Virus record (IMG/VR): IMGVR_UViG_3300027659_003120
Span: 27,817-91,816 of that record
Reading direction: 5' to 3' (one strand)
DNA: 64,000 nucleotides
DNA from: a virus
Shown here in pieces: positions 33,430-37,712 of the stretch. The translations under genes were made by a program, and so were the position numbers. The notes below the pieces were generated by a model. That model ran no database searches. It was not told the origin of the DNA and was given only the letters and a program-made list of their open reading frames with translations. The first letter of the stretch is position 1, and each line of letters begins with the position of its first letter.

Positions 33430-33812
33430 GTAATCCATTTGAATATGTAAATCAAATTCTGCAGGGTAAAAAGCAGTTAATTGTTGATGGTGCGACCGAG
33501 AAATTATATGAGCCATTTCTCGTAAATCGGGCGCTTTCCTACCACAAAGACTGTATTATGTATGCTAATGAGATGAATCGTAGGCATTTCATAGATAAAA
33601 AACTACAGAATGATTTTTTGATAAATACTATTAGGTCCTATAAAAGACCTTTCAATAAGTGGATTAAGGCTGAAAAAAGTGAAGATATAGCATGTATAAA
33701 GACCTATTTTGGTCTCTCGGATGCTAAAGCACGGGAAGCATTAAAACTCCTTAATGAAGAGCAAATCCTAGAATTAAAAGAAAAAACCGATATTGGCGGA
33801 TTAAGGAAATGA
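33426..33812 (+). CDS. gp62: clamp loader small subunit gp62
   Basis: YEPFLVNRALS, YANEMN, KAREAL, DIGG; precedes regA. Confidence 0.92.
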   Translation: MSNPFEYVNQILQGKKQLIVDGATEKLYEPFLVNRALSYHKDCIMYANEMNRRHFIDKKLQNDFLINTIRSYKRPFNKWIKAEKSEDIACIKTYFGLSDAKAREALKLLNEEQILELKEKTDIGGLRK

Positions 33813-33813
33813 A

Positions 33814-34209
33814 ATGGTTAATTTATCAACCTTTATTGAGGTGTCACTAAAAGAACAAGATGATTTCTTGAAAGTGCGGGAAACATTAACCAGAATTGGT
33901 GTGTCTTCTCGTAGAGAAAAGATTTTATATCAGTCGTGTCATATTTTACATAAAAGAGGCCAATATTATATTGTCCATTTCAAAGAGCTATTTGCTTTGG
34001 ATGGTAAAGACTCAAGTATAGTAGATAATGATATAGAAAGACGAAATGCCATAGCAAAGCTTTTAGAAGAATGGGAATTGGTAAAAATTGTTAATCCAGA
34101 AATTATGATAGATAAAATTGCACCAATACATCAAATTAAAATTATATCATTTCGTGAAAAAGACCAGTGGGAATTAGTAAGTAAGTATAACATCGGAAAA
34201 AAACTTTAA
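33814..34209 (+). CDS. regA: translational repressor RegA
   Basis: DDFLKVRETLTRIG, LYQSCHILHK, IVHFKELFALDG, KYNIG. Confidence 0.96.
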   Translation: MVNLSTFIEVSLKEQDDFLKVRETLTRIGVSSRREKILYQSCHILHKRGQYYIVHFKELFALDGKDSSIVDNDIERRNAIAKLLEEWELVKIVNPEIMIDKIAPIHQIKIISFREKDQWELVSKYNIGKKL

Positions 34210-34412
34210 TGGTTGTTGAATATATTATGAGAATAATTAAAGAAAAAATTGTAGAACTAAAAAATATATACTCTGGAGAGATTGTTTTCTCTAGTAATTT
34301 GTATGAAAAAAGAGTTGATGGCACAATGACATTTATTCAAGTTTATAAATCGGAAGATCCGCAAAGAAAATATCTTGTAAATTCTGCTGCGTTTGTAAAA
34401 GTGCATAAATAA
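34209..34412 (+). CDS. hypothetical protein
   Basis: TAATG-coupled to regA (alternative ATG 34227). Confidence 0.55.
   Translation: MVVEYIMRIIKEKIVELKNIYSGEIVFSSNLYEKRVDGTMTFIQVYKSEDPQRKYLVNSAAFVKVHK
34404..34411 (+). promoter_or_regulatory. late promoter variant CATAAATA
   Basis: Sits 6 nt before the first hairpin of the structured intergenic region. Confidence 0.6.
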
Positions 34413-34415
34413 AAG

Positions 34416-34536
34416 TACCCACCTTAGGGCTGTTTGATGCTACGGTATAAGGCGTCCGTGTAATTACACCTTCAGTACGTTAATCTGGACCAGTATAAGG
34501 TAAGCTGGAGTTATGCCTTCGGGATAACATTTTTTT
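34416..34536 (+). ncRNA. candidate structured RNA (pseudoknot, kissing loop, cUUCGg hairpin)
   Basis: GC-richer intergenic stretch almost completely covered by complementary segments; see findings. Confidence 0.6.
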
Positions 34537-34564
34537 AACTTGCTTTTTAAAGGAGAAAACAACT

Positions 34565-34780
34565 ATGTTGTTATACGCAAACATGGCTATTGATGCGATT
34601 CAAAATGCCAAAAATACCTTTCTTGACAACTCTGTTAAGGAAGAATCTATTAAAAAACCACTCAAAGCATTTGTTGAATCTCAAAGAGTATTCACTAAAC
34701 AAATAGCTAAGTCTTTTTCTGATATAACTACAGCATACTCATCATATGATTATGCTAGTATCTTTAAACCGACTAAGTAA
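34565..34780 (+). CDS. small amphipathic helical protein, possibly phasin-like
   Basis: Strong AAGGAG SD; AIDAIQNAKNTF...FVESQRVFTKQ helical pattern; function is a guess. Confidence 0.5.
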   Translation: MLLYANMAIDAIQNAKNTFLDNSVKEESIKKPLKAFVESQRVFTKQIAKSFSDITTAYSSYDYASIFKPTK

Positions 34781-34799
34781 TTTTTTAAAGGAGAACTAT

Positions 34800-35249
34800 A
34801 TGACATTGCATAAATTTACACACCTGTATCCTTCGGTTGTTGGATTTGATAGACTTTTAGATACCTTTGATAATATGTTATCTGAAAAACCTACAACATT
34901 TCCACCACATAATATTATTAAAATTGATGACAATAATTATTCTGTTGAACTAGCAGTTGCTGGTTTCAATGAAGATGAAATTAGTGTTGAAATTTTAAAA
35001 GGTAATTTGACCATCAGTGGCACAAAAAGAAAAACTGAAGGAGAAACAAATTATCTATATCATGGAATTGGCGTTCGTTCATTTCAAAAGAATGTTAGAT
35101 TAGCTGATACTGTAGAGGTTGCAGGAGCAATTTTAGATAATGGTATTCTTACTGTGAAACTTGTTAATATTACACCGATTGAAAAACAACCGGTAAAAAT
35201 TGCAATTAAAACAGTAGGTAAAACTCAACTTTTGCAAGAAAGAGTTTAA
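34800..35249 (+). CDS. hsp20: small heat-shock protein Hsp20 (IbpA-like)
   Basis: VGFDRL, FPPHNI, ELAVAGF, YLYHGIGVRSF, LDNGILTV; AAGGAG SD. Confidence 0.95.
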   Translation: MTLHKFTHLYPSVVGFDRLLDTFDNMLSEKPTTFPPHNIIKIDDNNYSVELAVAGFNEDEISVEILKGNLTISGTKRKTEGETNYLYHGIGVRSFQKNVRLADTVEVAGAILDNGILTVKLVNITPIEKQPVKIAIKTVGKTQLLQERV

Positions 35250-37638: not shown

Positions 37639-37712
37639 TGCGGGTTAGTAAAATGGTATTACGGAGGACTCATAATCCTCAGTTCTCAGTTCAACTCTGG
37701 GGCCCGCTACCA
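37639..37712 (+). tRNA. tRNA with CAT anticodon (Met/fMet-like), CCA encoded
   Basis: Acceptor GCGGGT/GCCCGC, D stem GTAA/TTAC, anticodon arm GAGGA-CTCATAA-TCCTC, T arm CTCAG-TTCAACT-CTGGG, ACCA end. Confidence 0.9.

Follow-up and report, generated by a model that had tools for sequence, protein, structure and literature searches.

The gap between regA and hsp20 of an uncultured T4-like phage encodes a structured non-coding RNA of about 92 nt on the + strand (34418–34509), and this element is a member of a real, uncatalogued RNA family that is abundant in lake phages. A sequence-only reading of the region had proposed such an RNA; its existence was borne out by covariation across 64 distinct copies, and its strand by G.U pairs. 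In our model, a 5' hairpin with an ACCUUA loop is followed by two consecutive H-type pseudoknots and a capping hairpin whose loop ends in GUAA, which together would form a self-contained and portable RNA. The family is abundant in lake viromes and present in lake metatranscriptome assemblies, and its members are short enough for direct biochemistry.

Genomic setting, conservation and distribution

The window, that is, the whole stretch of 64,000 nt analysed here, derives from an IMG/VR record of 91.8 kb representing a roughly half-complete, uncultured T4-like phage, and the sequencing runs carrying its DNA came mostly from lake or freshwater metagenomes. The ORF list gave the gene order regA (33814–34209), a 67-aa ORF (34209–34412), the gap with the element, a 71-aa ORF, and hsp20. 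RegA of this phage showed 71% identity to RegA of Synechococcus phages. The 67-aa and 71-aa ORFs, for which a PHROGs search returned no function, are optional cassettes on both sides of the element; RNA-library contigs of a related phage skip exactly 34151–34413 (67-aa ORF) and 34535–34783 (71-aa ORF). The features of the region are as follows.

34404–34411, + strand: late-promoter-like box CATAAATA, read from the sequence; ends 6 nt before the first RNA base
34418–34429, + strand: P1, a 3-bp hairpin CCC/GGG (34418–20/34427–29) with loop ACCUUA; conservation begins exactly at 34418
34430–34456, + strand: near-invariant modelled 5' pseudoknot with helices S1 (34430–33/34442–45) and S2 (34436–41/34451–56); 100% of cells paired
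34457–34489, + strand: 3' H-type pseudoknot, helix A (34457–59/34477–79) crossing helix B (34471–75/34485–89); from covariation
34460–61/34466–67, + strand: 2-bp mini-hairpin H with loop AAUU, within loop 1 of the 3' pseudoknot; both pairs covary
34490–34508, + strand: capping hairpin CCAGU/GCUGG (34490–94/34504–08) with a 9-nt loop ending in GUAA; from covariation
34510–34536, + strand: terminator-like cUUCGg hairpin (34510–28) with a bulged G, then U7; from the sequence
34540–34556, + strand: ROSE-like anti-SD/SD hairpin UUGCU...AAAGGAG; CU(C/U)GCUU...AAGGAG kept in relatives, P-SSM2 and C48C1
34565–34780, + strand: 71-aa ORF from the ORF list; optional insertion
34800–35249, + strand: hsp20 from the ORF list; tblastn matches features annotated Hsp20 in cyanophages

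Folding of the single 142-nt stretch gave a minimum free energy (MFE) of −30.2 kcal/mol against −31.05 ± 3.7 for shuffled sequences (z 0.23); 114 of 200 shuffles were at least as stable as the native stretch, and the opposite strand gave no signal either (z 0.27). Since the single sequence folds at chance level, the case for an RNA rests on comparison with relatives. An exact match to the first 23 nt of the element was found in 109 IMG/VR contigs, and a looser degenerate core pattern matched at least 118 times. The conserved unit has sharp edges, with an abrupt onset at 34418 and an end just past 34508, and the flank 5' of it is unrelated between clades. Its first approximately 40 nt (34418–34457) are near-invariant even where the adjacent 71-aa protein is only 38% identical between phages.

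Pairs were counted on two alignments, one made with MAFFT (45 distinct copies) and one fitted to the model (64 distinct copies). Paired cells made up 98.9–99.1% and 12–13 pairs showed two-sided changes, values that none of 500 shuffles reached, while slid controls paired at only 31–43%. Compensatory changes across the 64 distinct copies were thus present at 13 pairs in these homologous intervals. The 64-copy alignment also contains numerous G.U pairs, which would be A.C on the other strand and thereby place the RNA on the + strand. A conserved recombination linker at a plastic cassette boundary, acting as DNA with no RNA function, would suit the regA–hsp20 gap as an insertion hot spot with its optional 67-aa and 71-aa ORFs, as well as the identical block in otherwise diverged phages. 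However, compensatory changes that preserve RNA helices and the G.U pairs have no DNA-level reason, and we consider this explanation extremely improbable.

The element usually precedes an hsp20 leader, with regA or a small ORF upstream and with hsp20, or the 71-aa ORF plus hsp20, downstream. It is kept after regA without hsp20 in three relatives: in L109 it is followed directly by a U-run, a sigma70 promoter, a small ORF and tRNAs; in L198 by a short T-rich spacer, a sigma70 promoter and tRNAs; and in L178 directly by a sigma70 promoter. In L112, a 277-aa ORF lies directly 3' of the element, and a direct Shine-Dalgarno (SD)-AUG arrangement also occurs in L116 and L145. L116 belongs to a 26,078-bp phage (92% complete) that is unrelated to the T4-like phages; its one copy (L116:2783–2875) has an identical 5' half and is flanked by a 392-aa tail-fibre-like ORF, whose stop lies 2 nt upstream, and by an ORF of about 25 codons, whose SD lies 9 nt downstream; PHROG searches gave no function for these neighbours. 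The element was present in a single copy in the window, in its record, and in each of two complete genomes (202 kb and 170 kb). It is a portable module, independent of hsp20. Shorter forms also occur: type II variants (L005, L011–13, L024, and L042) lack the whole 5' pseudoknot, but P1 with its YACCUU loop is retained in them, together with the 3' pseudoknot and the hairpin ending in GUAA.

Searches against known families agreed with the earlier view that the element belongs to no named family. With Rfam 15 (4227 models) at gathering thresholds, only a tRNA at 37639–37709 passed in the whole window; at E ≤ 10, the interval 34300–34650 gave three chance-level matches, none of them on 34418–34509; and seven related loci returned only tRNAs and sub-threshold matches, with no riboswitch, ribozyme or thermometer family. 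ARAGORN reported only a tRNA-Met (37639–37712) in the window, in line with the statement that the element is not a tRNA. When the region and the element were compared by BLASTn with 50,697 phage records, cultured or deposited, neither gave a match, and the covariance model found no element in the complete C48C1 and P-SSM2 genomes or in the loci of S-P4 and S-TIM54. In GTDB, with each prokaryote species represented by a single genome, a degenerate core pattern of 21 nt gave seven matches against approximately nine estimated by chance; all were local (19–26 nt) and in unrelated MAGs, and were taken as chance. In the literature, the motif strings matched only unrelated primers.

Fold of the element

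All of the strings and coordinates quoted in the sequence-only reading were found in the window sequence, and the anatomy that it derived from them was about two-thirds right. The P1 hairpin is supported, its outer pair being C-G in 59 rows and U-A in three of the 64-copy alignment. The YACCUU loop of P1 is the feature common to all three variant types (types II and III being shorter).

For the 5' domain, the two helices read earlier (GCUGU/ACGGU and GAUGCU/GGCGUC) were located, and every change in the 64-copy alignment fits them: six positions vary, all preserving pairing. These changes are exclusively one-sided (U.G to C-G in eight and four copies, G-C to G.U in three, and three singletons), with no two-sided change and hence no covariation, because the 5' domain varies too little. 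The divergent type III variant (L017–L020) keeps P1, S1 and S2 with one-sided changes, while its 3' half is a different pseudoknot. The H-type pseudoknot proposed from the sequence thus appears to be the best model for the 5' domain, short of proof.

Two alternative folds of the 5' half fit the variation worse, yet are possible. Pairing of the P1 loop (CCUUA) with an internal UAAGG at 34448–52, as in the MFE structure of the 5' half, involves a position that varies freely (34448) and a pair that is broken in L165, and it is further disfavoured by the type II variants, which lack the partner strand. The RNAalifold alternative GGGC/GUCC has an inner part broken by U38C and by changes at position 34447, and is not kept in type III. 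The 5' pseudoknot also contains an SD-like AGGG with a 7-nt spacer and an AUG at 34437 that opens an eight-codon frame (34427–34463). This frame was rejected as coding since the AUG becomes ACG in several relatives (U38C) and the stop shifts.

Support for the 3' domain comes from two-sided changes. Helix B (UUCAG/CUGGA), which had been read as a simple hairpin, was confirmed by compensatory changes at all five of its pairs and was recovered independently by RNAalifold. Helix A, absent from the sequence-only reading, joins C57-G58-N59 to N77-C78-G79: its pair 34459–34477 occurs as five pair types (UA 33, GC 12, AU 8, GU 7, and CG 1), and, in the alignment read by eye, its pair 34458–34478 changes from G-C to C-G in L116 and L145. 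Helices A and B are interleaved, each with covariation support, which argues for an H-type pseudoknot in the 3' domain.

Helix A also bears on the 12-nt palindrome GUGUAAUUACAC, which lies at 34458–69 as quoted and had been suggested to mediate dimerisation. Its inner pairs (34460–61/34466–67) covary, but its outer pairs are not conserved: 34459–34468 is unpaired in 25 of 45 copies, and 34459 covaries with 34477, its partner in the helix that crosses helix B, not with its palindrome partner 34468. The palindrome is really the 2-bp mini-hairpin H inside the second pseudoknot. Dimerisation is weakly supported, as the loop differs from AAUU in 10 of 66 aligned copies. One relative (L198:3761–3879) carries an insertion of about 25 nt within H, apparently an extended hairpin, which indicates that H tolerates expansion like a peripheral element.

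The capping hairpin was likewise confirmed, with four of its five pairs covarying, 99.7% of cells paired, and independent recovery by RNAalifold. In the window, its loop UAAGGU is the exact complement of the P1 loop ACCUUA, from which a long-range kissing interaction had been predicted. This interaction is rejected: two of the six pairs (alignment columns 6–83 and 8–81) are unpaired in 32 and 19 of the 45 distinct copies, loop 1 stays fixed while the capping loop varies (UAAGGU, UUAAGU, and UAAAGU), and the single loop-1 changes in L165 and L162 occur without compensation. The complementarity is a coincidence of the window's clade.

Promoter-like box, hsp20 leader and transcripts

The box CATAAATA was compared with the T4-type late promoter TATAAATA, which lies about 6 nt upstream of the start. 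Among 90 distinct copies, 29 have an ATAAATA box whose end lies 6–13 nt (mode 6) upstream of the element, and in 29 more the box precedes an additional 5' module; in L177, L203, and L033, a sigma70-like promoter was also placed for the same start. Within the window, ATAAATA occurs 23 times against 44.8 ± 7.4 expected, about half, and 20 of the 23 are on the + strand, so that it looks like a late-promoter word that is used where it stands and otherwise avoided. The comparative spacing, depletion and strand bias together support the box as a putative late promoter, as assigned earlier.

In four RNA libraries, contigs join the element to the genes downstream of it, as far as hsp20, and run through the cUUCGg hairpin. 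These contigs speak for presence and bridging only, their depth and ends being unusable as transcript ends, and DNA carry-over is possible in the libraries behind them. RNA-library contigs also enter the element from upstream (33762–34446), which indicates that the element does not always lie at a 5' terminus. In one lake metatranscriptome (X17), an Illumina adapter lies directly before approximately 34430, just after P1, and before approximately 34530, past the cUUCGg hairpin. These joins may represent recurrent RNA fragment ends or an artefact.

The adapter join at approximately 34430, seen in one RNA-library contig, is a weak hint of a small self-cleaving ribozyme or a dedicated RNase processing signal, an idea that would also suit the sharp 5' boundary, the compact double-pseudoknot core, the unrelated gene contexts, the occurrence in phages and the strong conservation of the core. 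However, contig ends at 34429–31 are expected from assembly-graph branching at the common U31C and C-insertion variants, no Rfam ribozyme family matches at E ≤ 10, and nothing marks a cleavage site. A ribozyme or processing signal is accordingly very unlikely in our estimation.

The cUUCGg hairpin, which the sequence-only reading had counted as part of the element, is part of the hsp20 leader: P-SSM2 has this hairpin but not the element. In relatives, its apex GCCUUCGGGG is conserved and its lower stem covaries, with a poor U tract in most; a simple terminator scan made no call at 34510–36, although the window has a hairpin with a bulge and U7. The ROSE-like SD hairpin (34540–56) is thermodynamically weak in the window, and the Rfam ROSE models gave no match in 34300–34650 at E ≤ 10. 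The P-SSM2 hsp20 leader (L205:1385–1433) contains both the cUUCGg hairpin with the GCCUUCGGGG apex and the SD hairpin, and the C48C1 leader (L204:1950–1985) contains the SD hairpin, the element being absent from both. The ROSE-like part is thus a general feature of Kyanoviridae hsp20 genes that is older than the element. The element itself was rejected as a ROSE-like thermometer: 34418–34509 contains no such hairpin, it occurs without hsp20, and it matches no ROSE model. This clean separation from the ROSE-like thermometer part of cyanophage hsp20 leaders allows each to be studied independently.

A second conserved leader module was observed at L038:2400–2480 and also in L006–L009, L021, L025, L056, L057, L173, and L197–L199. 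Following TATAAATA, it consists of a 5' hairpin (CCCAUC-loop-GAUGGG), AAC, a further hairpin and a tail rich in A; pairing of this tail with the hairpin loop is possible and would give an H-type pseudoknot with a loosely preQ1-I-like outline. The module immediately precedes either the hsp20 leader or the element, either replacing the element or standing in tandem before it, and it gave no match in Rfam at E ≤ 1.

Possible roles and related RNAs

The sequence of the element is kept whatever gene follows and nearly all of its bases are constrained, which suggests that a conserved partner recognises its folded form. It would make up approximately the first 92 nt of a late transcript, with a start about 6 nt downstream of CATAAATA and with the 71-aa ORF and hsp20 further along, and it would act without pairing to its neighbours; it would be neither the leader's thermometer nor a riboswitch of the classical kind, which has an expression platform. 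The element is usually promoter-proximal, co-directional with the downstream genes and bridged to hsp20 in four RNA libraries, and these features favour a role in cis. The reading that we prefer, tentatively, is that of a folded module acting on its own late transcript: the compact 5'-proximal fold may shield the RNA from host 5'-end-dependent or 5'-to-3' decay, may help the polymerase past the terminator-like hairpin at 34510–36, or may do both. The outcome would be delivery of the downstream message late in infection.

Several observations sit less well with a cis role. Simple 5' stabilisers need no such sequence invariance, and in the window the hairpin with U7 would end an RNA of about 115 nt. 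The U-run that follows the element in L109 and the sigma70 promoters that follow it in L178 and L198 indicate that there it is not the leader of the next gene, so that a free RNA fits these loci better. The main rival is therefore a free, stable sRNA of about 92–115 nt, transcribed from promoter to terminator here and processed from longer transcripts elsewhere, that acts in trans; its targets would be a host or phage protein, or UAAGGU-like (Shine-Dalgarno-type) sequences reached through the exposed ACCUUA loop. The order of promoter box, element, and hairpin with U7 in the window is as such an sRNA would have it, as are the U-run and/or new promoter after the element in the three relatives, the sharp 5' and 3' conservation edges, the YACCUU loop shared by all three variant types, and the recurrence of an unchanged unit at differing transcript positions and in the unrelated 26-kb phage. 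However, base-pairing sRNAs conserve a seed rather than nearly all of their bases, most relatives have a poor U tract behind the hairpin, and RNA-library contigs cross the hairpin into hsp20. We regard a free sRNA as a possible but not a probable explanation.

A riboswitch had also been suggested; here, a ligand-sensing leader would control either whether transcription terminates at the cUUCGg hairpin or how the gene that follows is translated. The near-invariant junction and loop nucleotides, the pseudoknots and the 5'-leader position resemble an aptamer, and what follows the element differs as it might among riboswitches (hairpin with U-run, direct SD-AUG in L112, L116, and L145, or terminator). 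The conserved core is thus aptamer-like, but no expression platform was found: none of its sequence is complementary in a conserved manner to the hairpin or SD behind it, and the linker is a variable 0–8 nt, which makes a platform-type riboswitch unlikely. Furthermore, pairing of CCUU/AAGG with the cis SD is limited to 3 bp where the SD context is UAGGAG, the type II variants lack the entire 5' pseudoknot, the downstream genes point to no metabolite, and there is no Rfam riboswitch match. The P1 loop was likewise rejected as an anti-SD for the cis SD, because the pairing spans only 3–5 bp and is not conserved. A riboswitch therefore appears unlikely.

Apart from these alternatives, the invariance of a 40-nt core among diverged T4-like lake phages, and its presence in a small phage unrelated to them, point to a conserved molecular partner. 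More speculatively, and with considerable doubt on our part, the element may represent a new class of RNA that lets phages manipulate, through their own transcripts, conserved machinery of the host. As a processive antiterminator of the put type, it would modify RNA polymerase; as an equivalent, in bacterial viruses, of exoribonuclease-resistant RNAs, it would halt RNase J or RNase E at its 5' edge; it could also be a new riboswitch or ribozyme class. If true, any of these would explain the near-invariant core of about 40 nt and the sharp 5' boundary, as well as why the element does not depend on the gene that follows and how it spread to the unrelated 26-kb phage. Riboswitches, ribozymes, and RNAs directed at polymerases or nucleases were first noticed through conservation signatures of this kind, and we know of few phage RNAs that are so tightly conserved, with two pseudoknots and a function yet to be assigned.

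Among known systems, the HK022 put RNAs, 5' stabiliser stem-loops and exoribonuclease-resistant pseudoknot RNAs are promoter-proximal, self-contained folds that act in cis on their own transcript, with any downstream gene, through conserved host machinery. The put RNAs consist of two stem-loops without pseudoknots. To our knowledge, none of these three kinds of RNA has been described for T4-like phages. The element resembles them in its proposed working mode only, with no homology in sequence or fold. With the Rfam families ROSE, ROSE_2 and ROSE_3 it shares the position in the 5' leader of an hsp20-family gene, and the leader that contains it resembles ROSE both in its terminal U(U/C)GCU...AGGAG hairpin, which has a bulged G, and in the additional hairpins upstream of that one. 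Unlike ROSE, in which the upstream hairpins are variable, the element is pseudoknotted and near-invariant.

We also compared the element with the orphan motifs of T4-like cyanophages, manA (RF01745), wcaG (RF01761) and PhotoRC (Weinberg et al. 2010, PMC2864571). Like the element, these are conserved, covarying RNAs in intergenic leaders of cyanomyovirus-type phages, are mainly metagenomic and have an unproven function (PMC2864571). The element differs from them in its arrangement of a hairpin, two H-type pseudoknots and a hairpin and in its regA/hsp20 neighbourhood, and it shows no sequence or model similarity to them; its relatives, moreover, are IMG/VR contigs, and the runs carrying the DNA of the window are mostly from lakes or fresh water. 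Fremin, Bhatt & Kyrpides (2023, PMC10690425) predicted 10,006 candidate structured RNAs from IMG/VR, and their main text does not mention hsp20 or heat shock. These candidates share with the element their IMG/VR source and their nature as covarying intergenic RNAs, many of which lie upstream of genes or carry terminators, and the catalogue (PMC10690425) may contain the element.
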